Source: Dipteris shenzhenensis (taxonomy: Eukaryota). Taken from it: a stretch of 64,000 bases of DNA. Of the stretch, positions 12,138-44,682 are shown in pieces. The stretch's first letter is position 1. Each line of letters starts with the position of its first letter. A model generated the notes under the pieces. The model saw only the letters and a list, made by a program, of their open reading frames with translations, was not told the origin of the DNA and did not search any database. The stretch is taken from assembly GCA_047967505.1 (NCBI GenBank), contig CM106538.1; one strand, written 5' to 3'. The position numbers and the translations under genes were made by a program.

Positions 12138-15100
12138 TAAGAGTGCTCTCAACGGAAGCAAGAACGGAAGAAGGAGAGAGAGAGACAGAGAGCCACACAA
12201 GTTTGGTGGGTGCAGAACCACCCTAATCTTCTTTTTCATTCATTTATATATGTGTTTGAGTATTGTACATAACCAAGGTTAAGGCACAGTGACCTTTAAC
12301 CCCCACAACCTCCCACTTAAAGGACAATGTGCCTTTAAGGGAGAATAACTAGTGAGCATACTATCCAATGCCCATCAATACACGACAATACTCAAACCGC
12401 TGACTAGGTAGACTCTTCGTCAGCATATCTGCAGGGTTATCATCTGTATGAACCTTGACAAGCTCTATGTGCTTGTCCTCAAGTACCTCCCTGATGAAAT
12501 GGTACCTGACCTCAATGTGTTTGGTCTTTGCATGAAAGACCGGATTCCGTGCTAGTTGAATAGCACTCATGGAATCACTATGCAATGTCGGTACACCTGT
12601 ATGAATCCCCAAATCTCCCACTAGCCGATCAAGCCATATAGCCTCCTTGCAACCCTCTGTGGTTGCAACATACTCAGCCTCTGTGGTAGACAAAGCAATG
12701 CACTTCTGTGCACGAGACATCCACAACACTGCACCACCTGCAAAGGTGAACACATAACCAGAAGTGGATCTCCTACTATCCACATGCCCTGCATAGTCTG
12801 AATCTGTGTACCCAAGTACACGCATGTCTCCTTTACCAAAACAAATGCACATCTCCTTGGTACCCTTCATGTACCTCATGATGCACTTAACTGCCTCCCA
12901 ATGCCTCTTTCCTGGATTAGCCATATACCGGCTAACAACTCCCACTGCAAATGCAATGTCTGGTCTAGTAGCTATCATAGCATACATAAGACTCCCAACT
13001 GCTGATGCATAAGGAACCTTGGCCATCATGGCCCTCTCCTCATCTGATTTGGGACTATCTGTATGACTCAATTTCACATATGGAGGCAATGGAGTACTCA
13101 CTGCCTTCCCCCCCTCCATATTGAAACGTTGCAATACTTTTGTAACATACTCTTTTTGTGAAAGCCAAAGGAGTTTCCTACTCTGATCACGCGTGATGCG
13201 CATACCAAGAATATGACCTGCAAGTCCCAAATCCTTCATATCAAAGGCCTCATGCAACTTGGCCTTTGATGCATCTAGCTCATAAGTATTCTTGCTAGCC
13301 AATAGCATATCATCCACATATAGTGCCAAGATTATCAGGCTATTATCCTTAGCCCTTTTAGTGTAGAGGCAGTGATCAATTTCACTCCTTCTAAAACCCT
13401 GGGACCGAATGAAAGCATCAAACTTCTGATACCATTCTCTAGGTGCTTGCTTAAGACCATAGAGACTCTTCTTCAGCTTGCAAATAACTAAATGCTCTTT
13501 GCCCTTTTCTTCAAAGCCTTCCGGCTGAACCATGTAAATTTCCTCATGCAAATCCCCATGCAAGAAAGCTGTCTTGACATCCATCTGCATAAGCTCCATA
13601 TCCTCTATTGCCACTAGTCCAAGCATGCATCTAAGTGTGGTCATCTTCACAACCGGAGAGAATATCTCATCAAAGTCCACACCCTTCTCTTGCTTAAACC
13701 CTTTAGCAACCAAACGGGCCTTGTACCTAGGCACATCATCACCTGTGACCTTCATTTTGTAGACCCATTTACATGGCAATGCTTTCTTTCCATGTGGCAA
13801 AGAAACCAAGTCTCAAGTCTTATTCTTTATAAGTGAACTCATCTCTGATTGCATAGCATACTCCCACTTGCGTTTATCCTCACGCATCATAGCCTCTCTG
13901 AAGCAAGAAGGCTCCCCGCAATCAGTAAGCATCACATAGTCTACCCCTGGAACAAACCTATCAGGCGGTCTAGACACTCTGGATGATCTTCTCAAGGGCA
14001 TTTCAGCTTGCTGTCCCACTTGCATATCAGCCACATTTGGCTCATCATTTCCACCAATAGATGATCCATCATCTACCCTTAAATGTATACCTGTGGGAGT
14101 ACTTGGTGGGACCATTTCTTGCACATTTGGTGCATGGACAGCTTGCTGTCTATCAACATATGCAGGTGGATTCACATCCTGGAAAGTGATTCTCCTCATT
14201 TCCACATCCCTCATGGGTGCCTTATGCATCTTCTTCTCATTGAAGACCACATCATGGCTGCATATGATCTTCTTTGCTTCTGGATCCCAGAGACGATAGC
14301 CCATCTCTCCACTTTCACCATAACCCAGAAAGATGCATTTCCTAGACCTAGGATCTAGCTTCTTTCGAAGCTCTTTTGGCACATGTGCATATGCCTCACA
14401 CCCAAATATATGCAAATGAGAGTAAGAGGGCTTCTTGCCGCTCCATGCCTCATCAGGAATACCACCATCCAAACTCTTACTAGGTGATCTATTGATCACA
14501 TGCACTGCAGTCTTCATTGCCTCAGCCTAAAAACCACCAGAAAGACTTGCATTGGAAAGCATGCATTGTAACCTTTCTTGAATGGTACAATTCATCTTTT
14601 CTGCAACTGGATTTTGCTCTGGAGTACGAGGGGATGTGAGCTCCCTCTTAATCCCACGTGTATCATAGAAATGATGAAAGTCATGAGAGAGATACTCTCC
14701 ACCATTGTCAGTCCGTAGGCATTTAAGCGTTCTACCTGACTGATTCTCAACCAAGGCCAGCCATTTCTGAAATACCTGGAACACATCACTCTTCCGAGCT
14801 ATAGCATAAGCCCACACTTTCCTAGTTGCATCATCAATGAATGTCACATAGTATTCAGCCTCGCCTAATGACCGTGTAGGCATGGGACGACATACGTCTG
14901 AATGCACCAAATCAAGCATTTCAAACTCTTTCTTTCCCCTTATTTTATGGGCTGATTTAGTCTGCTTCCCATAGAGATAATGCTCACAAAATTCAAAATC
15001 AAAGAAACTCAAATGCGGTACATAACCCAAACGGCATAAGAGTTTCATTCCATTCTGGCTCATGTGCCCCAACCTGCAATGCCACAAAGAAGTGCTTGGC

Positions 15101-18037
15101 TGCTCAGTTATTGCAACAACATGATCAAATACCCCTGATACATGTAAGGGATACAAAGTCCCACACTTTGCACCCCTGGCCAAAAGCATAGAGCCCTTCT
15201 GAATTTTCCAACTCTGAAAGCCAAAAGTGGTGTGAAAACCAGCATCATCTAGCTGACCCACTGAAATAAGACTCTTGGTCAGCTTAGGCATATGTCTCAC
15301 ATGTTTCAAAACAAATGCAGACCCATTTGCAAAAGAAAACTTTATGTCACCTGCTCCCACTATGTCACATGCATAGTCATTTCCAAGATGCACACAATCT
15401 GTCTTTCCACTATCATAAGTGGAGAACCATTCCCTATGGGGAGTAACATGGAATGAAGCACCAGAATCCAAAATCCAATCTTGGGAATATGCATCATCTG
15501 AAGTGGTAATCAACTCTGCAGATAAAGTAGACATGAAGAGAACATCATTGTCACTATCATGTGTGACTGCATTGATCTCCTCGATCTTCACTTTTCCTTT
15601 GTCCTCCCTTGGACTCTCTTCCTTTTGAATTGCACCCCAATTTGCATTCTTTTTCTTATCCTTTTGCTCTCTTTTCAGCTTGTAGCAATCCTTTTTCATA
15701 TGGCCCTTCTTGCCACAGTGGTAACACTCAATGTTCCGTGCCCTGGATTTGCTACGAGACTTCCCTCTTTCTTGGGACTTCCCCCTGAACTGTGATCTAC
15801 CCCTTTGCACATTTAAGGCTGCATCCTGCTTATTGCCATCCATAGACTTCCGTCTAATCTCCTCGGCCAACAAGCTACCCACAACATCATCAAATTTTAG
15901 CACTCCACCAGGTGCAGAGTTACTGACAGCTGTATGGAAGGTATCCCATGAGGATGGCAATGAACATAAGAGAAATATTGCCTTAGTCTCCGCATCAAAA
16001 TTCATTTTTTGAGCCTGAAGTTGGCTGAAAATAATATTGAATTCATTCAAGTGAGAAGCAATAGAGACCCCTTCCTTCATCTGCAGCTCAAACAACCTCT
16101 TCATGAGGTAAACTTTATTAGAGGCAGTTTCCTTCTCATAAGTGGCACACAGTTTCTTCCACAAATCTTCCGTAGTCTGCTCATTTACTACTGTGAAATA
16201 AACTGACTCTGCAAGATGAAGTCTAATAGTAGACTTTGCTAATGCATCCAACTCATTCCAATCATCCTCAGACATATTTGCAGGCTTAGCTTCAATCCCT
16301 GCCAAGGGTTTAATCTGCTTCTTTTGAATAAGCACATCCCTTATTTGTTCTTTCCACAAAGAAAAGTTTGTCCCATCAAACTTTTTAATGCTGAAAAACT
16401 CCTTTTCAGGCATGGAAGAGGATGCCATGATGCAAATGAAACAAAATCCCAAATGCTAGTCCCTGCAAGAGAGAATCACACCAAATACCAGGTGCACCCA
16501 AATGTGTATGCCACAATAGTGTGAAATATCACCAAAACTCAAAGCTCAAAGCATCACAAGATGCATCTGACTCATGTGCATATACTATGCATCCATATGA
16601 GCAAATCTGGCCCAAAAGAAAATGCCAATAAGTGCCAAATGACTCAAGCATAAACACCGTCCACTGGCATATGCATCAATTATATCTCATCCAAGAGAGC
16701 ATAGCACTATCAGTGCATCACCAACAATGTGTCAAAGCTGTCCCTCAGCATAAAATAGCTTCCATGTGCAAAGCGTCCATAAAAAATAGCATCCCACAAG
16801 GCAATTTGGGCCTATCAGTGCATCCAACAAGGACTGCAATGCATCCAAATGGCCTATAAATCATCCATTGCAACCCAATGCATACCACGAATGAGCGCAC
16901 ACTGCTCAAACTGCAACCAGAGTGATCTGCATAAGGTATGCTCAAGAAATCATAGTCCCACGGTAATGAGCGCTACTGAAAATAGAACCTGAGATGCCTC
17001 AAAACATGGGCGCCATTGCATAATCGGACTCAGCAAGAAAATCTGCAAATATCTCTCTTCTGCCAGAACTCCAGAATCCCAACCGATGATTGAGAAATGG
17101 GAGTCAACACTTATCCACTGCCATGTGGCATAAATCTAAGGTTTCAAAACCTTAGTATGAAAAATGCATAACAGAGAGACGAAATCGAATACACAGAGGT
17201 TTATAACTCTGAAAATCCTCCACCGAATCACGCAAGAACTGATAGGTAGGGGTTTTTGGGCGTCCGAAACGCAATGGGACAGACGGTTTTGGAAACCGTG
17301 GTCTCAATCACTGGGTCCAACACACGGACTGAAAAACGTTTTTGGAAACAGAGCTATCTGTAAACTCCACCGGAGTTCGAATGATGAGCAACATAGAAGT
17401 TTTAGGACCTCCTGAGTCCACCGGAACTGACAGATCTGCAAATGGTTGCTCTAAACTTGAGTTCCAACACCCAGGCAAAAAACGCAAGAACTGACACAGT
17501 GAGTCAGAAATCCAATGAAATGATCCCAGATTCAAGAATGAAGGTGTTTCCAAGCTCCTGAAGTAATGTGGACACCAAAAGCAAGCAATAGTTGCCTCTA
17601 CAAGTCAATACAGAGTCTCTGTCATCGAACGGAACAGGGAAAAGCTCAAAAAACGACTTTTTCTTTCAAACCACTTAATAGGCTCTCAAAACCACTTCGC
17701 AAAGCCAAAGTAACTTTTCCAAAGGTTCCTCCAAGGCTCTGCACACTCGAATGCAAGTAAAGTCACCCACAAAGCTTCCCACAGAGCTTCTCCTTCCTCC
17801 CACAGAGCTGCTGGGCTTCCAAGCATTCACGCACGCTCAGCTAGATCACCCGGGCTCTGATACCAGTTAAGAGTGCTCTCAACGGAAGCAAGAACGGAAG
17901 AAGGAGAGAGAGAGACAGAGAGCCACACAAGTTTGGTGGGTGCAGAACCACCCTAATCTTCTTTTTCATTCATTTATATATGTGTTTGAGTATTGTATAT
18001 AACTGGGGTTAAGGCACAGTGACCTTTAACCCCCACA
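12138..18037 (-). mobile_element. Copia-1: full-length Ty1/Copia LTR retrotransposon, 170-bp LTRs (TG...TA), TSD GGTAT
   Basis: LTRs at 12138-12307 and 17868-18037 (4 mismatches). TSD at 12133-12137 and 18038-18042. tRNA-iMet PBS TGGTATCAGAGCCC (~17852-17865). PPT AAGTGGGAGGT (~12308-12318). Confidence 0.97.
12361..16452 (-). pseudogene. Copia-1 gag-pol polyprotein (gag, CCHC, PR, INT, RT, RNase H), broken by two in-frame stops
   Basis: ORFs 14527-16452, 13813-14517 and 12361-13809 share one frame. Motifs: KFDGTNF, CYHCGKKGHMKKDC, WILDSGASFH, LWHCRLGH, LRTDNGGEY, QMDVKTAFLHG, LYVDDML, YTDSDYAG, STTEAEY, ADMLTK. Both stops fall at Trp positions (TGG to TAG/TGA). Confidence 0.96.
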
Positions 18038-18046
18038 GGTATAACT

Positions 18047-18251
18047 ATCCAAAAAGGCTATAACAAAAGTAGTAAGACCATCGAAACCAGGGCATTTGCC
18101 CTTATGAAGGGCAGAGAGAGCAGTCTTGAATTCTATGTTGGTAAAGTGTGCATCAAGTGAGCATAACATCTCTGGGGTGACCAACACGGGTAAACTCTGC
18201 CAAACTTCATCTCTAGCCACCTCTTTGGCCTTAAGTTCGGATCTACAGAAG
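18047..18251 (-). mobile_element. Short LINE ORF2 fragment inserted in the Gypsy 3' LTR
   Basis: Absent from the 5' LTR (…ataac|tcaat…). Translates as LDAHFTNIEFKTALSALHKGKCPGFDGL, the L1 pre-RT K.PG.DG motif. Confidence 0.85.
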
Positions 18252-18599
18252 TCAATATAATATCCATCTCCACCTATTTTATATTGCTTCTCTCATGGAC
18301 TTTGAGCCATATCTCCTTAAATGTAGCCTAGGTGGAGGGGTGGCACATGGAGGAGCCATGCCACCTTGCATTTTATAATATCACTATCATGGATTATGTA
18401 CAACACACCTTATGGGTCCTCTTACATGGAAGGGTGGCACATGGTCATGCCCTTCCACCTCAACCTTGGGCCCTATGCACACCATAGTTTATTATACCAT
18501 TGCCACATATACAAATACACACACATATTAATGCCTTTTTCCTTAGACAATTTTATCCATAACAGTTCCCCCCCCCAGGCAGGGAATGCACAGCATTTC

Positions 18600-21500
18600 C
18601 ATGCCTGGGACCATCACGCACAAAGAAAGGCTTGAGGTAACGCTTGTTGATCACCTTCTTGCCATATGGTTCATGCAGCTCCTAAACTTGTACAGACCCA
18701 TTGCTACGTTCTTTGATGACTTTGTATGGACCAGCCCACAGTGGCAGAAACTTCTTATCCATTTGGTGGTCCAATCTATTATCAAAGCATAGCACAACAT
18801 CCCCCTCAGCAAAGTGTCTTTCCCATCCCTTGCGAATCTTAGCATCCAATCGGGCCTTTTGTCGATTCTTTTGGATCTCTGTTTGATGTAGTGCAAGGCG
18901 TCGGGTCTCATCTAACTTCTCAAGTTGTACCAATCTGGCCTCTACATGTTCATCTTCTGTCATCCTCTGTTCCTGCGCCAATCTCAAGGCCGGAATCTCT
19001 ATCTCTAGTGGTAAAACTGCCTCAGTACCATACACCAACTCAAAAGGGGTGTGACCTGTAGATGTTTTATGAGTGATGTTGTAAGCCCACACGGCTTCAG
19101 TGACCTTCTGATCCCATTGGCTCCTATTCCCTGCGGCCATTTTTCCCATGGTTTTATAAAGGAGGCCATTGGTCCACTCTGTTTGACCCATGGATGCTGG
19201 ATAATAGATGCTAGAAGTGTGATGATCAATGCCCATGCAATCCATGAGTAACTCCACTGCTTCATTTAAGAATGGACTCCCATGGTCAGAGACTATCTCC
19301 ATGGGTGTCCCAAACCTTGTGCAGATACGTTCAAAGATGAAATTTGAAACTGCCTTGCCATTTGCAGCAGAGAGGGCGATAGCTTCAGCCCACTTAGTGA
19401 CATACTGAGTGGCTACCAAAAGATACTTCTTTTTGCGGGCAGTCATGGGCAAGGGTCCGACAAAATCTATTCCCCACTTCTGAAACGGATGGATGGACAT
19501 CACTGGGTGATGTTGCCCAGGACGCAAATCCTTCCTACCGAAGAATTGACATGGTTCACAGGTTTTGCAATACAAAGTGACATCCTTGAACAAGGTCGTC
19601 CAATAGTATCCAGCATGTAAAATCTTCTTAGCTGTATAGTCACTGGCATAGTGGCCTCCACAAAATCCATCATGATAATGCTTCAATACCTTAGGCACTT
19701 CATCTGCTTCAATGGCCCATCTGAGTACCCCATCCATGCCTTGACGGTACAACACCCCATCAAGGAGGGTATAGCACCTACTATCTCTGCAGATCTTCTT
19801 TCTCTCATAGCTAGTACTTTCTGAAGGAAAGGAGAAAGCGGTCAAAAACTTGTAGATAGCACCATACCAAGGATCCCCAACTTCTATGGCTGCTACAAGG
19901 GTTACATCAAGGCACTCCTCTAAATCAATCAAAGCATTCTTCAAGCTGGAACAACCCCCTTTTACAATTTTGAAAGAAAAATCATATTCTTGTAGAACTG
20001 CCAACCATTTGGCCAACCGGCCCATGGGATTTGATGATTGAAGAACCTGCTTTGCAAGACCAGTGCTAGTGAGTATAAAGAAGGACTTTCCAGCCACATA
20101 ATGCTTAAATTTCTCAATGCAAAACACCAAAGACAAGGCATGCTTGTCGGCCTCTGAATAGCGTCGCTCAGTGTCGAGTAATTGTCGAGAAGCAAGGATT
20201 GATATAGAAGGTCTTTGACCAGTCTGGATTGCGTAGAATGGGTTCTGAAGCCAGAGCATTCTTGATTTGTGCAAAACCATGATCACAATCCTCATCCCAA
20301 GAAAAATCAACCCCATCTTTTAATAGCATAGTCATGGGCCGTGTCAAAGCAGCATACTGATCAATGAAGCGGCGATAGTATCCTGCTAGATTGACAAATG
20401 AGCGTACCTGACGTTTGGTTGTAGGTGGGGAGAGTTTGAGGATGGCTTCTACTTCCTCAGGGTCAGGCTTGATGCCCTCGGATGAGACAACATGTCCCAA
20501 TAACCTCCCTTGAGTGGCTCCAATGGTGCATTTCTCAGGGTTGAGACTGCCATTTGCTTCATTGACCCTTTGGAAGGCCAATCTAACCTTCATGATGTGC
20601 TCCTTACATGATGAGAATATACAGAAATCATCTAAAAACACCTCCAAGAAATCCCCCAAATAAGGAGCAAACACCATCTGCATAAATCTTTGAAAGGTGG
20701 CAGGAGCATTGGTGAGGCCAAATGGCATTACTTTGAATGCAAATGTCCCCCAGGGTGTGGCAAATGTGGTTTTAAGCACATCTTCCTCAGCAATTCTGAT
20801 TTGATAAAACCCAGAGTAACCATCACAGAAAGTATACATCTCATGACCACTTACCTTCTCAAGAATGAGGTCTTGAAAGGGTAGAGGATGATGATCCCTC
20901 TTGGTGGCAGCATTGAGCTTCTTATAGTCGATGCAGACCCGCCACTTGTTGTTTTTCTTTGGGATGACTACCACTGGTGAAACCCATTCAGTATTGTGAA
21001 CCGGAACAATAAACCCAGCCTCTACAAGCTTCTGCAACTCTGAGCGCAAAACGTCGGTCTGCAGGGGCCCTAATCTCCAATACTTCTGAGCCACAGGCTT
21101 TGCATCAGGCTTCAGCTCTATCTTGTGCTCTATGGCAGTCATATGGCGGTGGTGGTGGTAGCTAGTTGCAAAGAGGTCAGGGAAATCTTTGAACATTTCA
21201 AGAAACTCATCTTTCTCACCTGGAGTGAGGTCTGGAGAAAGCATTGATTCGAGCTGTTGAGGACTAGCTGTTATCTTTTCTGCAGGTGGCAGGGTCGGAG
21301 ACACCCCCATCATGTAAACTTCCTCCTCTAAGAATTCGTCCCCCCTGTCTGATTCTTCCATGGACTCAGACACTGAAGATGAGATAGTATCACTATCATG
21401 CTCCTCTTCTTCTTCCGGTTCCATGGCGCCAGGTTGCGCAGGGATTTTCTCCTTGGAAGCACCAAAAGACATGTGTCTTGTCTTCCAATAGCTGACTGCA

Positions 21501-21904
21501 TTACTTTTTCTCAACCATGGTCTCCCGAGTATGGCTGGGTAACTTCTGCCTGTATCTTCAATGTCCACTACATAGAAATTGACAGTGGTGGTCAACCCGT
21601 TGACAGTGATGGGCAAATCCTCAATGACTCCCATGGTGGCGAGTCATCGACCATCTGCTACCTTGATTCGAGTGGAGGAACGCCTTGTACATTTCAAATT
21701 CAATTTCTTCATGATGCGGGGCACCATGATATTACATGCAGCTCCCCTATCAACACACACATTTTTGACACAGCAATTATCTATGATGACATCTACTGTG
21801 TGTGGGTGCCGATCAATTTCTTCAAAGATAGAAGATACCTCTCGTACCTTTCCCTTTTTCTTGCTCTTCCTTGTTGAGAGACCTTGCTGCAGCTCACGTC
21901 TCAC
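18600..21904 (-). pseudogene. Gypsy pol: protease, RT, degenerate RNase H, integrase with GPY/F motif; frameshifted
   Basis: VCVDRGAACNIM (PR), ILGRPWL, WVSPVVVIPKK, WRVCIDYKKLN, DGYSGFYQI, MPFGLTNAPATFQ, FLDDF (RT), H..GGH...C..C, WGIDFVGP, SDHG, WAGPYKV. Confidence 0.95.
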
Positions 21905-23353
21905 CTTAGGGCTTAATGCTATTAGTTGAGGGAGTGTGATAATTAAAGACCGATGAGCAAGGTCCTGAATGACCGAATAGTCCTCTTGCCCTGAGCCGAT
22001 GGGAAAATCCGAGGGTGACCACTTACTCCTGCGAGATCTTTTAGTCTTCTCTGTTGGTGGGTCGCCATCTCAGCATCTGAGGGCTCTGAGAAGGACACCT
22101 TCTTCCTGGGGCGGCCTAGTCCACGGTTTGGAGAGGGGTCCGAGGTAGCACAAGTTCTTTTCCCGAGATCAAGGATATCCACATCAGAATCCTCAGTGCC
22201 CGACTCACTTAGAAGATTCACCCTTGGAATATTGGGGCATTCTGTGCGATAATGACCCTTCTGGTGGCACTCGTAGCATACAACATTAGCACGATCTCTT
22301 GGAGGGCGGTTGGCTTGATTTCTGATGCCCACCATCTCAAGCCGAAGATCATTCAGGGCCTTGGCTAGGTCATTGACTCCAGGTTCTGTTGCAGGGGGGG
22401 CCTCTTTAGTTGGAGGGGCCACGGGAGTAGAGAGGAGGGGAGCTCGTGGGCGAGGCTGGGGAAATCTTCGAGGCGGAGGATGAGGATATCCACCTTGTTG
22501 AGGGTAAGCATCTAAGGGAGGACCATACATTTGAGGTGGAGGCAGTGGATACATCCCTGATGAGGGGTGGGGGTATGCCCCTGAGTTAGACCCCCCAGGT
22601 TGTTGTTGCAGGAATGGAGGGGGATGCGGAGGGACAATCGTCTTCTTTGAGGCGGGGTCAGACTGAACTTTGTCAAACTTTTGAGCAATCTCATGTGCTA
22701 GCACCATAGTTTCTGGATTCTCCCATTTAAGCTTGAGGCGGAATTCATCTCTCGCTCCTGCTACAAGGTAGCCCAGCACATGCTGAGTCATTCCAGCTCG
22801 AAACCCGGCATTGTCCTCCTGTGTGGCAATCAAACGGTCCAGGAGCACGGCCGCTCGATCCACATATCGACGCGCCGTCTCACCTTCTGACTGCTTCAAA
22901 TTTGCCACCTGCAGGTACACATTCTCCGGCTCCTCTTCTTTGCCGAAATACTCAATCATTGCTGCTGTCAACCTTGGCCAGCTTTGGCGAACATCTTCGG
23001 CTTGCTTCTGACAAAATATGAAGAGGGGAGAGGAGAAGAGTGGAGATGAGGAGAGAGGGCACAGCTAGAGAGCACACCACAAATGACTAACTGTACACTA
23101 GAATTAGTTGAAAAAATAGAATATATACAAACCCTTTTAGGGTTAGGGTTAGGGGATCTAACCCTTTCCTTTATAGCACTCTATAAGGTTAGTGCTATGC
23201 ACATATGATCACGTGATGGTGCTATGCACACATGATCACATGATGTTGAGCGTGAACTCTCAACACCTTCCCTCAAGATCAACATCATGAAGTAGGCCTT
23301 CCCTCAAGATGATGATTCTGGGGAATAGAAGAAGGACTGAGCATTACATTCCA

Positions 23354-25378
23354 TCACACCCCTTTAATGGGAATGTCCTTCCTCTGCATCAAACCAAGAG
23401 CTAGTCGGTGTTTCTCGAATAGCTCTTTACCGAGTGGTTTGGTAAAGATATCTGCAACATTTTCTTTGCTATCACAATGCTGCAGTGTGATGTCACCAAG
23501 TAACACTCTTTCTCTGATGAAGTGCTCTCTGACATCAATGTGCTTTGTTCTGGAGTGATATACTGGATTTTTGGCCAATGCTTGAGCCGATTGATTATCA
23601 CAGTATATTGTTGTTGGCTTTGACTCATCAAAGTAATCTGTTTCTGACAATAGTCTTCTGAGCCATATAGCCTCACATGCACCTGTAGTGAGTGCCCTAT
23701 ATTCTGCTTCAGTCGAAGACAAAGAAACAGTTGGCTGTTTGTTTGACAACCATGATATAGCACCTTGACCAAGGAAAAATGCATATCCCTGTGTCGATCT
23801 CCTGGTCTCATGATCTCCAGCATAGTCACTGTCACAGTATCCATGCAACCGTGGATGACTTCCTCTGTATTCTATCCCAAATTGTCTTGTACCTCTGATG
23901 TATCTCAAGACTCTTTTGGCTGCATTCCAGTGAGACTGTTTTGGATTTGCCATAAACTGTGCTAGTGAGCTTACTGCATAACAAATATCTGGCCGTGTGA
24001 TTGTCAGATATATAAGAGATCCAATGAGTTGCCTGTAGTATCTGTCATTGACTGTAGGCTTTTCTGAATCTTTAAAGTTTCAAACTCTGTTCCATGGGAG
24101 TGGCTGCAATCTTGCAATCTGCCATATGAAACTTCTTCAGGAGACTGTCAACATATTTGAGCTGACTCATGAATGTGCTATCTGAATCTCTCCAGAACTC
24201 AATTCCAAGACAATAGTGCATAAGTCCAAGATCTTTCATGTCGAACTCTGCAGATAAGTCTTGTTTTAGCTTTCTGATGAAGCTATCCTTGCTTCCTGTC
24301 ACAATCAGATCATCTACGTACAAAAGTGCAATAGTAATATCTTCCCCTTGAACTTTGTAGTAGAGAGTATGATCTGCATTGGACTTCATGTATCCCAGAT
24401 CAGCAAAATACTTGTCAATTCTGCTGTACCAACTTCTGGGTGCTTGCTTTAAGCCATAGAGACTTTTCTTGAGATGGCAAACCTTGTTCTCTTTTCCTGG
24501 TTCAACATAACCGGCTGGTTGTTGCATGTAGACATCCTCGTCTAGATAACCATTGAGAAATGCATTCTTGACATCGAGCTGATACACATTCCATTTACTG
24601 AGTGTCGCTAGTGATATCAAGAACCGTATGGAATCCATCTTGGCTACTGGAGCATAAGTCTCATCATAATCTTGGCCATATTGTTGTGCAAATCCTTTTG
24701 CAACTAATCTGGCTTTGTATCTCTGAATACTGCCATCCGGATTGTACTTCACTTTGTATACCCATTTGTTGGCTATGGCCTTCTTTCCTGGTGGAAGGTC
24801 GCATAATTCCCAAGTGTTATTTTTATACAAAGCATCCATTTCTTCATTCATAGCAGTTTGCCATTCTGGCTTATCTACTGCATCTTCGAAGTACACTGGC
24901 TCTTCTGTAGCCATGATGGTAGTCATAAGAGCATAGTTGGTGGTTTCCACCTGAATTGCTTTGCCTTTCTGAGCATATGTCAATCTGGCTGGTGGTCTGC
25001 TTTCCCTAGTAGACCGTCTGAGCTGCTGTGACGCTGATTGGGGTGTTGCTGGCAATTCTTGCTCTTCTTCATCAACCTGTTCTATAGATGACTGTGAAGT
25101 CGATGCTTCTATCTCCTGTGTAGGTGAGGTTTTCCATTCTGATTCCTCATCGAAGATTACATCTCTGGAGATAATGACTTTGCGGTTGATGGGATCATAC
25201 AATTTGTATGCTTTACTTTCTTCACTGTAGCCAACCATGATGCATTTGCGTGACTTCGCATCCAATTTTCTGCGATGATCATCATGTATGTGGGCATATG
25301 CTATGCAACCAAATATGCGGAGATGCCCAATGCGTGGCTTGTGTCCAGTGAATGCTTCATAAGGAGTCATACCTTGTA
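23354..25378 (-). pseudogene. Copia-2 pol 3' part (INT C-terminus, RT, RNase H), one frameshift near 24072
   Basis: TPYEAF, KLDAKSRKCIMVGY, QLDVKNAFLNG, LYVDDL, YCDSDYAG, SSTEAEY, ADIFTK. Confidence 0.95.
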
Positions 25379-25507
25379 TCGGTTCGGTAATTTATTGCAG
25401 TTCTATCTTCACCGACGGTACAGAGATTTCACTTGGCATCTTCAGTGTATTTGCAGTTGATTCATACAGAGTTTTTTCAGGACACTCTTGAGTACATTGT
25501 TTGCACC

Positions 25508-26075
25508 ATGTCGACTAGCAACCTCAATCTGGAGGCATCTGCTAAGTTAGACAACTCCAATTACGGTACATGGAAATACCGAATGGAGACCATTCTTGTG
25601 CTTCAGGACAAATGGGAGTATGTTGATGGATCCATACCTAGACCATTGGCCGATCCAGCCACCAGTAGCTCTACTCCATCTGTTGTCACAGCACCAGCAA
25701 CGGGATCTACATCGGGATCTACATCTACACAAACAGTTTCCGCATCAGTAGCAGATCCTGCCATTGCCCGAGCTCAAGCAGAATGGGATAAGAAAGACAA
25801 GTATGCCTATCACCTGATCAAGCAGAATGTGCAAGATGTCATGCTAGGACAGCTCAACACAGTCAAGACATCAAAAGAAGCATGGGATATGTTCGCAGCT
25901 CTCTACGAGTCCAAGAACACATCCAGGATTCTCACCTTGAGAAACCAGATCAACCAGAGTTTCCGCAATAGCAATGAAACCGGTCATGCTTATGTACTCC
26001 GCATCAAAGACTACAACAATCAACTTGCAGCAGCAGGAGAGACTATGAATCCCGCAGAAATGGTGGCAATGATGC
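25508..26075 (+). pseudogene. Copia-2 gag N-terminal half, inverted relative to the element
   Basis: KLDNSNYGTWKYRMETIL...WEYVDG...WDKKDKYAYHLI...TSKEAWDMF is a Copia gag (DUF4219/UBN2-type) signature. It is on + while PBS, PPT and pol are on -. Confidence 0.92.
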
Positions 26076-26699
26076 CGGGAATAGCCAAGAGGCTTTACAA
26101 GGCTGAAAAATGATGTGCACGATGCCGTGAGATAGCCAAATAGGCTTTACAATGGTGGCATGTGTGTGTGAAATCAAGTGCTATCTGCCCACTGAATCAA
26201 TCTGCAATGCCTCTGAACTCTGAAGTCTGCTCACTGAACTGATGAACGTAAGGTTTCAGGTAATGTAATGATGTGAAATCGGATGTGAGCGTATGGACTG
26301 ACTCCGAGTAGGTACTAGTCGGGAATTTCGGGCATGGCTTAGATTGGCAACTTGGGGAATTCAAAGCGTCCCCTCTATGGCAATCTAGTCTACTCTAATC
26401 TAGATCTAAACCAACCGTCGATCGATGAAAGAGCAGCAAATAATTCCTTTTCTTTTGTTCTTTTTAAGTGCTGGGTCAGATGCATCGATGTAGAGGCAAA
26501 TGTGCGTGAAGGAAGTGGTTTTGTCGGCGAGGCTCAAATGTGAGTGTAACTTGCGCCGAAATGTGCGCGTGATGTAACGAGCGCGTAGAGCACAAAAAAT
26601 CGAGCGACTTTCCTTTTTGGAGCACCCTCAAATTCTTCCTGGATCAAGAGATATGACTTGATCTAGGTGGAGGGGCAAAAGGAGTGCAAATGGTGCTCA

Positions 26700-27110
26700 A
26701 TGATGATGTGTCACTGTGAGTCACATGCAGTGATGATGTGGCACTGTGCTTAGCAAGAGGTGTGCCAGTGAAGCTCTGTGCTGAGGTGGCAGTGCTGAGG
26801 TGTCACTGATGACGTGGCACTGATGACGTGGCAATGATGACGTGGCACAGATGACGTGGCAGTGATGACATGGCAGCTGACGTGGCAGTGATGATGTGGC
26901 AGCTGACGTGGTAGTGATGACGTGGCAGTTGACGTGGCAGTGATGATGTGGCAGTTGACGTGGCAGAGGTGACGTGGCAGCTGACATGGCAGAGGTGACG
27001 TGGCAGCTGACGTGGCAAAGGTGACGTGTCAGCTGACGTGGACTGCTTACGTGGCGCTGATGACGTGGCTCCGATGGTGACGTGGCAGATAAGGTCTGCC
27101 ACGTGTCAAC
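26700..27110. repeat. Minisatellite of alternating 12/14-bp units with core TGACGTGGCA (ABRE/G-box-like)
   Basis: About 16 exact ACGTGG cores plus CpG-decayed variants (TGACATGG, TGATGTGG) between ~26808 and 27090. GCCACGTGTC at ~27098 and ~27172. Confidence 0.93.
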
Positions 27111-27639
27111 CTGCAGACCACTTCTGGGGTGAGTGGTGACCCTGAGGATAAGGTTGGGTTGAGTGTGGGATGCCACGTGTCGCCTCGTGGGCCGCCGGAA
27201 TCTTGGAGATGCCGACGGAATCTCGAAGATTTCGTCGTCGTTTTCGTTAGAGAGTCTGAATCTCGCTGTAGAAGGAGTCCTCGAGCTATGGCGGAGGAGC
27301 TGAATCTGTAGCTCTGGCTATGGCGAGAGAGCACAACCTCTACAAAATTTCTCTAGCAACCTGATGTTGGAAGCTGAATCTCTGTCTATGGCTGTCGAAG
27401 CTTCGAGCTCTGGCGATGGTGGAGGAGCTCACGTTTAGAGCTGAAGCTTCAAGCTTTGGCTATGGCGGAAGCGCTTGTCACCCAATTACGCATTTTTTCG
27501 CTTTCCTTTCACGCTTTACACTTTTCCTGTTTCACCTTGTCAAATCGGCAGGCCAGCGACGCGCTCCATCTCCAACGAATCAGAGGCTGCAAGCATGAGA
27601 CAACAATTGGACGCAGAGGTTCAGAAGAAACTTGCGCTG

Positions 27640-27856
27640 GAGCCTCCGGAGTGTCTGACTACTCCAAGTCGGGGAAGCCATCAGCCAGCGGCCTCATCGA
27701 GGTGGCTCCGGAGACGATCACCGCGTACTTGCAGAAAATGCAGCGCGGGGGCCTGACGCAGGCCTTCGGGTGCGTGTTGGATGTGGAGGGGCACAGCATC
27801 CTTGCGTTGAGCGAGAATGCGTCGGAGATGCTGGAGACGTTGTAGTAGTCGGGCTG
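27640..27856 (+). pseudogene. Captured phytochrome N-terminal (NTE/PAS_2) fragment, neochrome (PHY3/NEO)-like
   Basis: SDYSKSGKPSASGLIEVAPETITAYLQKMQRGGLTQAFGCVLDVEGHSILALSENASEMLE matches the phytochrome consensus DYSKS...TAYLQRMQRGGLIQPFGC...AYSENAPEML. GC-rich; lies inside the Copia-2 leader. Confidence 0.9.
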
Positions 27857-28938
27857 CTTGAGTCGTTGCTGCTTGTTGTTAGCTTGGCCGTTGCAGTCCC
27901 GGAATAGAACAGAGTCGCAAGGTTGGAGCTTGCTACCATGAAGCCATTGATGTAGCTAGCCGTGGAGAGCTCTCGTGAGCTTTGAGCTGTTGGAGGCTAT
28001 GGCGGCCGAGTCCAGGAGATCGTTGTAGAGAATAGATCTCTCTATCTCTCTCAATGCCTAGCCTCTCTCTCACAATATAAGAATGACGAAAATTTCTTTC
28101 ATCAAGGGAAATAAAGAATGGAACCACTCAAGATGAAAAATATCTCACATATCTCTCTCTTTCAATGGACGGAAACCCTTTCAATGGACGGAAAGAAAGC
28201 GGAAGTTCTCTCAACGGAAGAGAACACTCAATCTCACGATCTCTCTCACACTCTCAAGAAACTCAATGTCTCAGCGGAAGACAAGGGAGCTCTGATACCA
28301 TGACAAAATATGAAGAGGGGAGAGGAGAAGAGTGGAGATGAGGAGAGAGGGCACAGCTAGAGAGCACACCACAAATGACTAACTGTACACTAGAATTAGT
28401 TGAAAAAATAGAATATATACAAACCCTTTTAGGGTTAGGGTTAGGGGATCTAACCCTTTCCTTTATAGCACTCTATAAGGTTAGTGCTATGCACATATGA
28501 TCACGTGATGGTGCTATGCACACATGATCACATGATGTTGAGCGTGAACTCTCAACAGCTTCTCATACCACACTTGAGCCAAACCTTCTAGAAATGTGGG
28601 AAGAACTAATAGCCATCTGTCTTCAGTAAGAAAGTTGAGAGAAACACAACGGCGCTTGAAAGCCACAAGATACTCATTGGGATTTTCTTCTACCCGTCCA
28701 CAAAACACGGGAATGTCAGCCATGCTTGGAAGATGGAAAAGAGGGGCTTATCTATGGACGAACAATAGTAAGAGGAAGCTTGAACTGAAAATCGGGTGAA
28801 GATACATCCAAAAAGCACACATAGGCAGGGTAGGGTGTGACTGGTGTAGTGTGAAATATTACACGAGAAGAATCTTCAGCATAGAATAGCACATAGACAA
28901 TCTTAAAAGGACCAACCCTCATGATATCACATTGATCA

Positions 28939-29103
28939 TTACACGCGAGGGTTAGAGGTGCGACGTTGCATGAGGTTGTTCATCAAGGCAAAGAAGAATG
29001 CCATGACAAATGTCAGCAGTTGGAGAGCTTGCACATCACCTTCAGCTTCTTCCAGTTCTTGTAGTCGCCATGCTATTTCTTTAAGGGGTGTGCGGTCTGG
29101 CAT
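28939..29103 (-). CDS. Putative 54-aa accessory ORF with a hydrophobic segment, in the Gypsy leader
   Basis: ATG at 29103, TAA at 28939: MPDRTPLKEIAWRLQELEEAEGDVQALQLLTFVMAFFFALMNNLMQRRTSNPRV. Overlaps the end of the upstream CCHC ORF. Confidence 0.3.
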   Translation of the reverse strand: MPDRTPLKEIAWRLQELEEAEGDVQALQLLTFVMAFFFALMNNLMQRRTSNPRV

Positions 29104-29281
29104 CCTTCTTTTGAGCAATGTCCTTGAGAACCCTCCTGATGATCTTCCGAAGTCGGTGAACTCGTATCAAGTATGCCCAACACTTAGTTTCATGATGACC
29201 ACAACCTTTGCATTCCTTACAAACGATCACCCTCCTTCATGGCTTGCGGCTTTGTTGGGGTGGCGCTTCCACTCGCGTCAT
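29081..29281 (-). pseudogene. Putative small CCHC zinc-knuckle accessory ORF (one internal TGA)
   Basis: MTRVEAPPQQSRKP*RRVIVCKECKGCGHHETKCWAYLIRVHRLRKIIRR... contains an exact CX2CX4HX4C at 29180-29221 followed by a basic tail. Confidence 0.55.
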
Positions 29282-29681
29282 GCGTGATTGAAATACAAGC
29301 TTCACGTGCCAAGAAATCAGCAACAAGATTTCGAGCTCGAGGGATATGCTAAATTTTTACCTCTTCAAATTGGTTGCAAAGTTCCAAGGCTTGTTGATGT
29401 CGTGGAACCAAGCCTTTGCTCCGCACCTTCCACCTTCCACTAACTTGTTTGCACACTAGTTGAGAATCTCCTTGCACCTCCAATTGCTTGGCATGATGTT
29501 CTTGTGCCTTTTGTAGCCCAAAAATGAGCGCCGAGTACTCAGCTTGATTGCAAGTACTTGCGGGTGAAGACTTGCTGTAACAATACTCCTCACCACCCGG
29601 TGAAGTGAGCTTCACACCCACGCCAGCCGCCTTGGTCGAAGGTTTGTAAGCTCCATCAAATTGAAGAATCCAAGATGTCAT
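29217..29681 (-). pseudogene. Stand-alone archaeal/plant-type RNase HI (aRH) ORF upstream of gag, one internal TAG at 29349
   Basis: MTSWILQFDGAYK..AAGVG...TCNQAEYSALIFGL...VQGDSQLVCKQV.G.WKV...*HIPRARNLVADFLAR. All D/E/D/D catalytic residues are present. Confidence 0.92.
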
Positions 29682-29904
29682 CACACCAGGACTAAAATTC
29701 GGACATCCCAAGTTTCTCGGTAGTCCAAGATAGGTAGAAGGAGAGGGTGGGGAGAATTCAACACTTGAGTCAAACGTTTAGCACCAAATAAACTTGCAAT
29801 TCTTTGTTGATAGTTTATCTTAAGCCCAAAAAGAATTACAATTTAAAGCTCGAAATGAGGCACAAAAGGCTGATTAGGTACAAATGGATTCCTTGGTCGA
29901 AACA

Positions 29905-30315
29905 TTACCAACCATAGCCAAGGCCTAGAAACCTTTGTAATGAGATTGTGAATAAACCATTCAGGACGAGCTTTTCCGCAGGAATCAACAAGCAGATGCG
30001 CCAAATCTCCCCCCAAGCTTGGGGAGCATCCCACCCTTCGAAGAAGGATACCGTTTTAATTACCTCTGAAGCAGCAAGTAGTCCGATCACCGCACAATGA
30101 GTAGAAGTAAAGTCAAAATCCTCCCAGCGTATCAGTAGTTCGTCACCATGAATCATCCACGGTGTATCATTCCACCCGTCATCACCATCAATAATGCACT
30201 GGACAATCAGCCGTTGAAGGTCGACATGAAGATCAAGGAAGACATCTCGTGCATTGGTAGCCGTAAGGTGCGGAGGAACAGGCACCAATTCTTTAAACGC
30301 GTGGAGAAGTGACAT
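29905..30315 (-). CDS. Extra 136-aa ORF of unknown function in the Gypsy 5' leader
   Basis: ATG-initiated, protein-like composition, same strand as the element. No family recognised. Confidence 0.45.
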   Translation of the reverse strand: MSLLHAFKELVPVPPHLTATNARDVFLDLHVDLQRLIVQCIIDGDDGWNDTPWMIHGDELLIRWEDFDFTSTHCAVIGLLAASEVIKTVSFFEGWDAPQAWGEIWRICLLIPAEKLVLNGLFTISLQRFLGLGYGW

Positions 30316-30526
30316 AAATGTCCACCCTTCTCGTGAGGCGTGCGTCCGTGAAGTGAGCTTGGAGAAGTTTTGAATTGGCGATCTAGCAAGAGAAGTGGAT
30401 AGAGCACATAAAATGAAATATTTTTGCTTTTTACAGCAAGAGCAAACTCCTTACGGTTAGAGAGTTACAGCTCCCGCGATTTCAATATATGAACAAAAAT
30501 CATTACATTTTTACCACTTCCAACTT

Positions 30527-30586
30527 GTTGGCCCAATGGTAAGACTTTCTTTTGTGAAGGGGGAGGTCTTGGGTTCCAATCCTACT
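30527..30586 (+). other. tRNA-like (His, GTG anticodon) Pol III A/B-box element in the Gypsy leader, antisense to the element
   Basis: TGGCCCAATGGTAAG (A box/D arm), TTGTGAA loop closed by TTCTT/GGGGG, and GGGTTCCAATCC (B box/T arm), with canonical spacing. No acceptor stem. Confidence 0.6.
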
Positions 30587-30705
30587 CTTTAATAAAAAGA
30601 GAGGAGAGGAGAGGAGAAGGAGAAGAGAAAGAGCAGGAGAAGAAGAAGAGAAGAGATAGGGGGGGGCACGGGATCTGCTGTTACTCTTTTGCAGGGGCTC
30701 AGTAA

Positions 30706-30892
30706 ACAGAACAGTCCGCGACCAGAGCAGTCCAGAGAACTGTCGCGCAGAAAACTGTCCGCGACCAGAGCAGTCCAGAGAACTGTCGCGCAGAAAATTG
30801 TCCGCAACCAGAAGTCGCAACAGTCTAGAGAACTGTCGCGCAGAAAACTGTCCACAACCAGAAGTCGCAGCAGTCCAGAGAACTGTCGCGCA
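30706..30892. repeat. Tandem repeat, 4 x 43-50 bp, in the Gypsy leader
   Basis: cagaaaactgtccgcgaccaga...cagtccagagaactgtcgcg repeated four times. Confidence 0.93.
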
Positions 30893-31000
30893 GGAGACGC
30901 ACGAATCGAATGCACGCGCAGTAGCTTAGAAAGAGCACAGATGGTATAGTTTTGTTGATGTAACCCGTACGAATAGAAGATTCGCCACCAGCCATGGAGA

Positions 31001-31023
31001 TTCGAATCCCAGCAGCCACACCA
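31001..31023 (-). promoter_or_regulatory. Primer-binding site complementary to the tRNA-His 3' end
   Basis: The + strand reads TTCGAATCCCAGCAGCCACACCA, matching the plant cytosolic tRNA-His(GUG) 3' end plus CCA as I recall it. It lies 4 nt from the LTR. Confidence 0.88.
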
Positions 31024-31027
31024 AAAC

Positions 31028-32018
31028 TTTTAGCCGGAAAAGTTATCGAGATCAGAGGCTAGAGACTAAGTATGGCTACGCTCAAAGGCCATAGAGAAAA
31101 GGAGATCACGAGGGCGAAGGGATGTCATAGGGGTGAACAAGAAATTAGAAGTGGAGGGAAGGAAAAGGAAGACTATGACACAAGGGGAAAGGGAGAGGGG
31201 GAAGAGAAGCATATACATGATAGGAAGAGGAATGTTGAGATGTAGACATCAAGGGAAGTGAACCATACTTTATTGGAAAGAAGGGATGAGAGGGAAATAT
31301 CAAAATACTAGCTAGGTGGCTTTACAAGAATGAGCGTGTCTCATCAAGGAATAGCCCCTTCCTTTTATAGCCAAAAGAGGGGATCTCTCCACATTAATGT
31401 ATCCTCCCACATGCATGGTGTGTGTGGAAAAGTTTCCCATGTGGGCTAGGTGGTTACGCACTCTCAATTGTGTGCGACAACCCTTTGCCTCAATTTTCCA
31501 CATAAATCAAGCCCCATATCTCAAGTCTATGATACTCCCTTGGTCTCTTTCCAATTTTATAATATGTTCAAACCTCTAGGAGGACAAGTGGAGGGTTGGC
31601 ACAAGGAATCTTGCCACCTCATCCTACTTTCCCCATTATTTAACTAGCTCTCTTTGTCCTTCTATACCTCCCCCACATGGGCCTATCTCATATGGAGGGT
31701 ATAACTCAATATAATATCCATCTCCACCTATTTTATATTGCTTCTCTCATGGACTTTGAGCCATATCTCCTTAAATGCAGCCTAGGTGGAGGGGTGGCAC
31801 ATGGAGGAGCCATGCCACCTTGCATTTTATAATATGACTATCATGGATTATGTACAACACACCTTATGGGTCCTCTTACATGGAAGGGTGGCACATGGTC
31901 ATGCCCTGCCACCTCAACCTTGGGCCCTATGCACACCATAGTTTATTATACCATTGCCACATATACAAATACACACACATATTAATGCCTTTTTCCTTAG
32001 ACAATTTTATCCATAGCA
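31028..32018 (-). repeat. Gypsy 5' LTR (991 bp)
   Basis: Uninterrupted copy of the LTR, adjacent to the PBS. Confidence 0.96.
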
Positions 32019-32469
32019 GTACCTAAATCAAGATCTGCTCATTCTTAATCTCTATTAAGTCTGTACGCTAATTACGCTAATGCTTCTTGATGGGTTTTTT
32101 GCAGCAATCCCAGGACAAAAATCCCAGGACGATGAAGTGGCACCGGAGGAGATCAAGAGAGTTCTATTGCTTACTATTTCCTCCTCCTCCCCCTCTTAGA
32201 ATGCAATCTAGTGGACTGTAGCCCAATTCTCTATCCTCACGTCTGTGTGCCTACAGTCAGACATACAGTGACAAAATTGAAGACGATGCATAAGAGAGTA
32301 GTAATGTCCGCCTTCCAACTGTGCAGGCTTTAGCGCAATTGGAATTGGAATTGCAATTGCAATTGCAATTACAATACAATTCCAATGCAACTTCTAACAG
32401 AATTCGATGTTCCCTTAACATTGCACAGGGCTCTTGTGTTAAGCAGCCACAATGTCGCTAACCACTCTA

Positions 32470-43509: not shown

Positions 43510-44682
43510 TTAGAAAAAGTCCCGCCTGGAGGCAGCAGGTCTTTCTCCAGCAAGGTTCACTCGAATAGGTCGCCCTTCCACCTCCTGCATTGCAGAACGT
43601 AAAAAGAGTGAGTTTTGAGATTTTATGAAGTACGAAATACCAGATAAAAGGGGCAGACATGAATAGGTAGCCAATCTCACCGCTCCATCCATGTTATTGA
43701 TTGCCTCGTTCACTTCGGTCTCGGAAGACAAGGTGACAAACCCAAAACCCCGGGACCGTCCAGACTCCCGGTCATACACTATTTTTGCCTCCACCACTTT
43801 GCCGTGTTCACTGAACAGTTGTTCTAGAGACACGTCATCAAAGCCCCACGGCAAGTTCCCTACAAATAACTTGTTGGTATTCGATGAAGGGCCAAACTCG
43901 GTGCGAGGGCGAGGAGGAGCATCCCCCCTGGATCGATCGGGAAAGTTGACTCTCAGAGTTCTGCCTCCGTAATCCTGCACAAAAGATCTGCAGTTGAGAA
44001 TGGAGACCCAACAACACACAGAGAGCACCCTTGCACTGCAGCAAGTGAGTAGAGTAAGCAGATACATACAGCTCCGTCGAGCTGGTTCACCGCCGCGGTA
44101 GCATCCTCCATGGAAGTCATTGTCACAAAGCCAAAACCGCGGCTTCTTCCTGTTTCCCTATCATATATGACCTGCCAAATATTGAGAGCGTAAATAAACG
44201 AGCAGTAGGGAAAACATAGCAGCAAATAACATCCACTTCACAGCAGGAGACGGACGGCATATCGAAATACAACACCAAGGACGCAAGGCACCTACCTCGA
44301 CCATCTCAACACTGCCAACCTTCTGGAAAACATCAGCCAGCTCCTGGCTATTGCAGCTCCAGGGCAGGTTCCCGACGTAGAGCTTGGGGCCCTCGGGAGG
44401 CGAGCTGGGGGCACCGAACTCGGGCTCTTCGGTGCCAAACTCGGGGGTCTCGGACTCCATCTCTTCCTCTTCGGTGGTGAGGTCAGCGCGGGCAAAGGAG
44501 GGGAAGGAGCGGGGACGTTTGGAGAGGGCGAAGGAACGGGAGAGGGAGAGGGAGAGGCTATGGGAGGGGGAGCGGAGGCGGAAAAGGAGGCAATCAGGGC
44601 GGGGGGAGGAGTGGGAGGGGGAGAGGGAGCCATTGGAGAGGGAGATGGAGGAGGAGGAGGAGGTGAGGCAAGAGGAAGCCAT
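43510..44682 (-). CDS. Chloroplast RNA-binding ribonucleoprotein (cpRNP, CP29/CP31-like), 285 aa; exons 44682-44296, 44171-44070, 43974-43681, 43584-43510
   Basis: Ser-rich transit peptide, acidic linker, RRM1 (KLYVGNL, RGFGFV), RRM2 (KLFVGNL, RGFGFV). Three GT-AG introns, all phase 0; exons of 387, 102, 294 and 75 nt join into an open frame ending in TAA. Confidence 0.96.

Follow-up and report, generated by a model that had tools for sequence, protein, structure and literature searches.

Do the small open reading frames (ORFs) that lie between the primer-binding site and gag of a Tat-like Ty3/gypsy long terminal repeat (LTR) retrotransposon belong to its family as genes, or are they merely frames left open in a long 5' untranslated region? 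The question is raised by a stretch of 64,000 nucleotides (nt) from Dipteris shenzhenensis (assembly GCA_047967505.1, contig CM106538.1), here called the window, on whose minus strand all features of the element's leader lie; the assignment of the element to Tat is by layout only. A first-pass annotation, made from the letters alone, had described four sense-strand frames in this leader, namely a 136-amino-acid (aa) ORF, an RNase H ORF (aRH), a 66-codon ORF with a CCHC zinc knuckle and a 54-aa ORF with a hydrophobic stretch, and had proposed that they form an accessory-gene module. Their order, positions and overlaps are as described, but the knuckle ORF is closed in this copy and the aRH holds an in-frame TAG. 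In the reading that we consider likely, the window contains a dead copy of an element whose overall layout has been published, and whose leader carries three conserved ORFs (ORF136, the aRH and ORF54) together with a nucleocapsid-like stretch. The features of the leader are listed here, with frames as numbered in a three-frame translation from 30400 to 28450.

30999-31023, minus strand: sequence resembling a primer-binding site, which begins TGG and resembles the complement of a tRNA 3' end (read directly)
29905-30315, minus strand: ORF136, a conserved 136-aa ORF, identified by its homologues and open frame; reads 30315 to 29905 in frame 1
29217-29681, minus strand: aRH, an archaeal-type RNase HI of 154 codons (Pfam RVT_3), from 29681 to the TAA at 29219-29217 in frame 2, broken by a TAG at 29351-29349
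29081-29281, minus strand: knuckle frame, +1 relative to the aRH, with an ATG at 29281, a TGA at 29239-29237, the CCHC knuckle, a basic tail and a stop at 29083-29081; frame 0
28939-29103, minus strand: ORF54, a conserved 54-aa ORF, identified by its open frame, homologues and AlphaFold2 (AF2) model; reads 29103 to 28939 in frame 1
28752-28922, minus strand: ORF56, an open frame between ORF54 and gag; reads 28922 to 28752 in frame 2
28558-28723, minus strand: first 55 codons of gag, an ORF with its ATG at 28723 in frame 0, cut by a nested LTR element
28970-29287, plus strand: antisense ORF of 105 aa, covering the knuckle and ORF54

From each ORF of the series to the next, the frame moves by +1. 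The stop codon of the aRH overlaps the first Cys codon of the knuckle, the ATG of ORF54 lies 20 nt upstream of the knuckle-frame stop, and ORF136, the aRH, the knuckle stretch and ORF54 all fall within the stretch bounded by the primer-binding-site-like sequence (31023 to 30999) on one side and the ATG of gag (28723) on the other. By their number alone the ORFs do not exceed chance: there are four sense ORFs of at least 50 aa, where 500 dinucleotide shuffles gave 2.03 on average (P=0.128); the codons contained within sense ORFs number 356, against 143.5 in 500 such shuffles (P=0.016). ORF136, the aRH and ORF54 are counted as real here because homologues keep them, conservation having been judged from proteins of public assemblies and from contigs of public sequencing runs (X1, X2, X4 and organism B). 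Contigs of a further run, X3, also span ORF54, the knuckle, the aRH and ORF136, but as that run is only presumed to be RNA they do not count here as a sign of expression.

ORF54 is open as first annotated, and a HMMER search of 1.84 billion representative sequences returned two homologues of it, P0039 (54 aa, 83% identity, E 2.9e-22) and P0040 (52 aa, 50-52% identity, E 1.4e-08), both of which align with it from the first Met through the last residue. The N-terminal half of the protein is acidic and its C-terminus basic, and it also has a hydrophobic stretch; its best 17-aa Kyte-Doolittle mean is 2.02, and over ORF54 and its two homologues the hydrophobic stretch gives 17-aa means of 1.76-2.29. 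The AF2 model built from these three sequences has a mean predicted local distance difference test (pLDDT) score of 84.2 and consists of a single long kinked helix (residues 6-21 and 23-50), for which Foldseek found no match in the PDB at E<=0.001. No Pfam family was matched by ORF54 or P0039 at E<=10, and a scan of IMG/VR with the ORF54 alignment returned nothing.

ORF136 is likewise open as described. Its homologues are P0001 (136 aa, 57% identity), P0002 (135 aa, 54-55%) and P0003 (82 aa, 60%); P0001 and P0002 share their first and last residues with ORF136, and 39 columns of the alignment are invariant. Neither ORF136 nor P0001 matches a Pfam family at E<=10. The AF2 model, from four sequences, is of mixed helices and strands with a mean pLDDT of 68.3, and like that of ORF54 it has no fold match: Foldseek found nothing for the ORF136 model at E<=0.001 in the PDB or BFVD, and the best hit among 48,161 chains compared with VIA-align (Z 5.7) was a helical hairpin covering residues 1-45 only. 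In the same comparison, residues 49-133 aligned with the STAS-like protein RsbS at Z 4.8. The best ESM Atlas score for P0001, 0.89, was to nematode clusters that include F-box proteins; this is a lead only, below a meaningful level, and Pfam and the model give it no support. ORF136 and ORF54 thus keep their start, end and length at 50-57% identity, which indicates that they are under selection and are genes of the family. The best homologues of ORF136 are only 54-60% identical to it, compared with 81-83% for those of the aRH and ORF54; either ORF136 evolves much faster, or closer copies are missing from the protein collection.

The aRH begins at 29681, as first annotated, and is an RNase H ORF by Pfam (RVT_3, 7.1e-19; RNase_H, 1.1e-06), but the in-frame TAG at 29351-29349 had been overlooked and leaves only 110 aa open in this copy. 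When the aRH was searched with X at the TAG it matched 35 proteins. The closest, P0004 and P0005, are 154 aa long and 81-82% identical over 100% of the query, with a sense residue at the position of the TAG, which is absent from all three of the family proteins that cover it (P0004, P0005 and P0011). These same three, which are the siblings that reach the C-terminus, also stop at the same column as the aRH of the window. Judged from these relatives, the aRH is a self-contained protein of 154 aa when intact. The motifs FDGA, AEY, GDSQ and AD.LA are present, and the protein ends in a variable tail (residues 130-154), the codons of which overlap the knuckle frame. The nearest relatives of P0004 among solved structures, at E-values from 2.8e-17 to 2.5e-11, are Halobacterium 4e19 (2.8e-17), 3hst from Rv2228c, S. 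tokodaii 2ehg, and 3aly. With archaeal-type RNase HI proteins (4e19/4nyn, 2ehg/3aly and 3hst, the N-domain of M. tuberculosis Rv2228c) the aRH shares homology over the whole domain; it differs from them in being retrotransposon-encoded, in being a 154-aa stand-alone ORF and in its 25-residue variable tail. Scans of the JGI metagenomes with the aRH and ORF54 alignments found no relatives, and a scan of IMG/VR with the aRH found only two unrelated RNase H loci, L001 and L002 (47% over 32 residues).

In the comparison with sibling contigs, the listing covers 40 of the 385 substitution sites and 12 of the 32 indels, and the codon counts given here are therefore small and selected. Of 11 substitutions listed where the aRH alone is encoded, eight are synonymous and one is a nonsense change in other copies. 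That change, at 29402 in aRH codon 94, occurs in X1 and X2 contigs and in three X4 contigs, so other copies of the family are broken elsewhere than the copy in the window. In the sibling protein P0012 the gap between ORF136 and the aRH (29682-29904) reads without a stop for 73 codons, beginning at an ATG that overlaps the stop codon of ORF136, and a change of frame leads on into the aRH; the window has a stop in that frame after 20 codons, and the open stretch in P0012 looks like an accident of a degenerate copy.

The fourth frame differs from these three in that it is closed. The first-pass annotation had noted a 66-codon ORF (29281-29081) with an exact CX2CX4HX4C and a basic tail; the motif CKECKGCGHHETKC is indeed at 29221 to 29180, followed by the basic tail, but the 15th codon from the ATG at 29281 is a TGA (29239-29237), and three-frame translation shows no ATG between this TGA and the knuckle. 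In this copy, then, the knuckle is not in an open frame. What remains is nonetheless nucleocapsid-like, and is neither a chance motif nor part of the aRH. Six-frame translation of the whole window contains CX2CX4HX4C three times, the other two being in gag genes, whereas 200 mononucleotide shuffles gave a mean of 0.05 and a maximum of one. The order of a basic run, the knuckle and a basic tail is that of nucleocapsid knuckles, and it begins inside the poorly conserved tail of the aRH. With X in place of the TGA, the frame matches the element's own gag in BLASTP at 26.6 bits (E 3e-5), in an alignment that begins upstream of the X and includes the basic lead-in; as the alignment spans the X, the TGA interrupts what looks like one nucleocapsid-like frame. 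A specific paralogy with the knuckle of the element's own gag was considered and rejected, 26.6 bits being no better than the scores of unrelated pairs (20.0 and 31.6).

With the zf-CCHC family (PF00098) the upstream knuckle shares the exact CX2CX4HX4C spacing, the Gly that precedes the His and the flanking basic residues on either side, and it aligns with both gag knuckles of the window. It differs in not being at the C-terminal end of a Gag, in lying below Pfam detection and in its closed frame, and it has a Lys where, presumably, an aromatic residue usually follows the first Cys. The knuckle of the element's own gag is also under the Pfam zf-CCHC cut-off (16.8 against 20.8 bits). For the knuckle stretch, the best score in the ESM Atlas was only 0.77.

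How are these frames best explained together? One could suppose that the aRH is the only gene of a long 5' untranslated region, in which the small ORFs happen to be open by chance. The number of sense ORFs would permit this, and a chance ORF of 105 aa exists on the antisense strand as well; as a real gene that antisense ORF was rejected, all eight of its listed sibling substitutions being replacements, and it is probably a chance frame. We regard the idea as scarcely credible for the leader as a whole, since chance frames would not last with start, end and length in place at the identities seen for ORF136 and ORF54. On the sequences compared it is refuted for these two, and it stands for ORF56, which is probably a chance frame: sibling contig rearrangements reach into it (joints 28853 to 28966 and 28915 to 28980), siblings have insertions behind 28743 and 28744, just downstream of it and ahead of the gag ATG, two of its three listed substitutions are replacements, and Pfam found nothing in ORF56 or in the first 69 residues of gag. 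The accessory-gene module proposed at first is partly supported: ORF136, a stand-alone aRH and ORF54 are kept with their length, start and end in diverged homologues, and the knuckle ORF is closed in this copy. It had further been suggested that the knuckle is frameshift-fused to the aRH, a programmed +1 shift near the aRH end adding the knuckle and its basic tail for RNA binding or packaging. The geometry is inviting, as the knuckle adjoins the aRH end exactly, with its first Cys codon overlapping the aRH stop in the +1 frame, and a free aRH needs a way into the particle, a question already raised by others (Biryukov & Ustyantsev 2023, PMC10508981). Yet all three siblings end at the aRH stop of the window, so that in them aRH and CCHC are not one ORF: the siblings have a self-contained 154-aa aRH that ends before the knuckle. 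None of the 35 aRH homologues (84-270 aa) has a CCHC after the RNase H domain. To retain the first Cys, a shift would also have to fall within the five aRH codons between the TGA and the first Cys (TGT), where residues differ among siblings, and therefore no conserved slippery site can be inferred; a shift at the stop codon itself would lose the first Cys. Such a fusion is, in our judgment, very improbable.

Harder to set aside is the proposal that the knuckle is a non-coding nucleocapsid relic of the recombination that placed the aRH before gag, with only ORF136, the aRH and ORF54 functional, to which we would give somewhat less than an even chance. Several observations weigh against the reading we prefer, and many of them speak for a relic. 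Apart from the TGA, with no later ATG, that closes the frame here, the aRH tail of P0011 would imply a separate stop that precedes the knuckle in its frame. A shared-word search over predicted proteins of 36-116 aa returned none that matched the knuckle ORF, and Pfam zf-CCHC misses this atypical knuckle even at E<=10. One organism-B contig has 167 unalignable letters in place of 29134-29327 (the aRH tail and the knuckle) and another deletes 29198-29326, so the knuckle is not kept everywhere. The similarity of the knuckle frame is moreover generic (20.0 bits against the copia gag, while the Tat gag and the copia gag themselves give 31.6), an absence of gaps is not diagnostic, since one contig also aligns without them over the inter-ORF stretch 29638-29902, and the codon-level counts rest on only 40 of the 385 substitution sites. 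Adaptor roles for ORF136 and ORF54 are purely inferred, because neither has a recognisable fold or family. An origin of such layouts by inter-element recombination has itself been proposed (PMC10508981). Against a relic stand the integrity of all four Cys/His positions and their spacing in an otherwise decayed copy, and the listed sibling substitutions of the knuckle frame, four of six of which are silent (one of them stop to stop) and one an R>K change. Most sibling contigs cross the knuckle without indels, those spanning the region gap-free being from X2 (1027 nt, 46 differences), X1 (291 nt, 12) and X4 (343 nt, 52). Judged from their aRH residues, P0004 and P0005 could not hold a stop at the position of the TGA. 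That the stretch is translated as a small ORF in intact copies we put a shade under an even chance; a leader with conserved ORF136, aRH and ORF54 and a nucleocapsid-like stretch, in a copy now dead, remains the reading that we favour.

How does this leader compare with those already described? In Tat elements the additional RNase H is known from five positions (PMC10508981), of which the one called structure #4 occurs in four mosses and in Selaginella tamariscina, the supplement listing 'Cpur_2 B Bryophyta 4'. The accessible text of a later paper names the layout with a stand-alone upstream aRH 'pre-capsid' (Prokopeva et al. 2026, PMC13468544). The element here agrees with structure #4 in having a separate archaeal-type RNase H ORF between the 5' LTR and gag (29681 to 29217, ahead of the gag ATG at 28723, and self-contained at 154 aa in siblings), in the Ty3/gypsy order of reverse transcriptase (RT), native RNase H (RH) and integrase, and possibly in its native RH, which appears to lack an active-site residue. 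Aligned with the Ty3 chain 4ol8 (E 0.002, over part of the domain only), the native RH has T-S-T where 4ol8 has T-N-H, in a column that we take to be that of the catalytic Asp; the change would fit the reported degradation of this domain. The difference lies in the leader, which in the accessible descriptions of structure #4 elements contains the aRH ORF only, and here has two further conserved ORFs and a knuckle besides. Neither 'zinc' nor 'ORF' occurs as a word in the supplement of PMC10508981, nor 'zinc' in the accessible text of PMC13468544; no description of extra ORFs or of a knuckle in moss Tat elements was found in the literature searched, the figures and the supplement of PMC13468544 lying outside its scope. 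In seed plants, Tat/Ogre elements carry extra ORFs (eORFs) that encode PMD or Tr28 domains and in some cases precede gag, and moss Tat-like elements did not appear to have extra ORFs, according to the accessible part of Ustyantsev et al. 2015 (PMC4408406). ORF136 and ORF54 resemble these eORFs as extra sense-strand ORFs upstream of gag in the same lineage, and differ from them in being much smaller and without any Pfam domain. The stand-alone aRH layout is thus already published, while no published account of the conserved ORF136 and ORF54 seems to exist.

How the aRH works from a separate ORF has been called unclear (PMC10508981). It might supply RNase H in trans, acting on the RNA/DNA hybrid during reverse transcription and serving a Pol in whose own RNase H an active-site Asp seems to be missing. 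Since a free aRH has to get into the particle, the small proteins encoded beside it are natural adaptor candidates, and ORF54, perhaps the knuckle peptide and perhaps ORF136 could take part in aRH recruitment or RNA handling. The single long helix modelled for ORF54 may serve to form oligomers or to anchor it in a membrane, and intact copies may make a 66-residue nucleocapsid-like RNA-binding peptide from the ATG inside the aRH tail. With 38 ATGs ahead of gag in the leader, gag would likely be translated from a spliced or otherwise separate RNA. It is tempting to go further and to suppose that moss-type Tat elements carry an overlapping accessory set reminiscent of complex retroviruses (ORF136, a free RNase H, a 66-residue knuckle peptide and ORF54), in which the knuckle, ORF54 or both bring RNase H and genomic RNA into the particle and ORF136 is a fast-evolving factor against host defence; we think this unlikely as a whole, though if true it would answer how the aRH works from a separate ORF. 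ORF136, ORF54 and the knuckle are in any case concrete candidates for linking the free enzyme to the particle, which makes the question testable by binding or packaging assays.

Apart from its leader ORFs, the element is an ordinary dead retrotransposon copy into which others have nested. It is dead by its broken aRH, the TGA in its knuckle frame, and its gag and 3' LTR, both of which are split. The remaining features of the element and of the insertions within it are listed below.

31026-32020, minus strand: 5' LTR, identified by blastn against the split 3' LTR, with boundaries good to within 2 nt
21943-23003, minus strand: remainder of gag, with its own CCHC knuckle at 22278-22237 (Pfam zf-CCHC, E 0.0072)
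18682-21634, minus strand: pol (RT, native RH and integrase), which in this copy occupies two overlapping frames
18576-18565, minus strand: polypurine tract, a run of G ending in A, 5' of the 3' LTR
18564-18249 and 12137-11463, minus strand: 3' LTR in two pieces, identified by blastn and by reading the junctions
23009-28557, no strand assigned: LTR-bounded element nested in gag, with 257-nt LTRs and TG..CA ends (direct repeat of 262 nt)
12138-18248: complete Ty1/copia element of 6.1 kb that splits the 3' LTR, identified by its junctions and Pfam

The LTR pair was recovered by blastn in two parts, 31026-31702 against 11461-12137 (97.9% over 677 nt) and 31703-32023 against 18249-18569 (98.1% over 321 nt), and the element is flanked on both sides by the same four bases, a 4-bp matching flank. 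By coordinate arithmetic, the two parts of gag are in the same register across the insertion. In pol, Pfam matched RVT_1 (2.6e-27), RT_RNaseH (2.2e-13; also RT_RNaseH_2), Integrase_H2C2 (4.1e-11) and rve (5.1e-12), which confirms the order RT, native RH, integrase of Ty3/gypsy elements on the minus strand. There is no second copy of the leader in the window, the only repeats found being the LTRs; ARAGORN found no tRNA genes in the window, and Rfam gave only two sub-threshold chance matches over 28400-32100.

The element nested in gag is bracketed by a target site duplication, GCTTC, at 23004-23008 and 28558-28562, and is a young insertion, its LTRs being essentially identical. Its content by Pfam is chimeric: the end of a copia integrase and an RT (RVT_2) on the minus strand at 24075-25391, and a copia gag on the plus strand at 25391-26110. 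It also holds a 26-nt tandem array at 26822-27067 and a plus-strand ORF at 27378-27842, the end of which matches the phytochrome-type family PAS_2 (E 4.2e-07). The copia element at 12138-18248 carries a gag with a knuckle, a Pol beta-barrel, an integrase and RVT_2.

Three other features of the leader and one elsewhere in the window deserve mention. At about 30520-30600, read in the plus sense and thus antisense to the element, a stretch has a tRNA-like look, with A-box-like and B-box-like motifs discernible by eye; ARAGORN and Rfam found nothing there, and it may be a degenerate tRNA copy or derive from a short interspersed element. Immediately next to it the organism-B run has high read depth. 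Imperfect direct repeats occupy 30726-30893 of the leader, 30728-30793 and 30821-30893 matching at 86%, and are followed by a long pyrimidine-rich tract at about 30590-30660, which the comparison with the sequencing runs passed over as repetitive. On the minus strand at 43513-44715, two adjacent frames match RRM_1 (6.3e-18 and 4.8e-06) and probably represent a host gene for an RNA-binding protein, interrupted by an intron or a break in frame.

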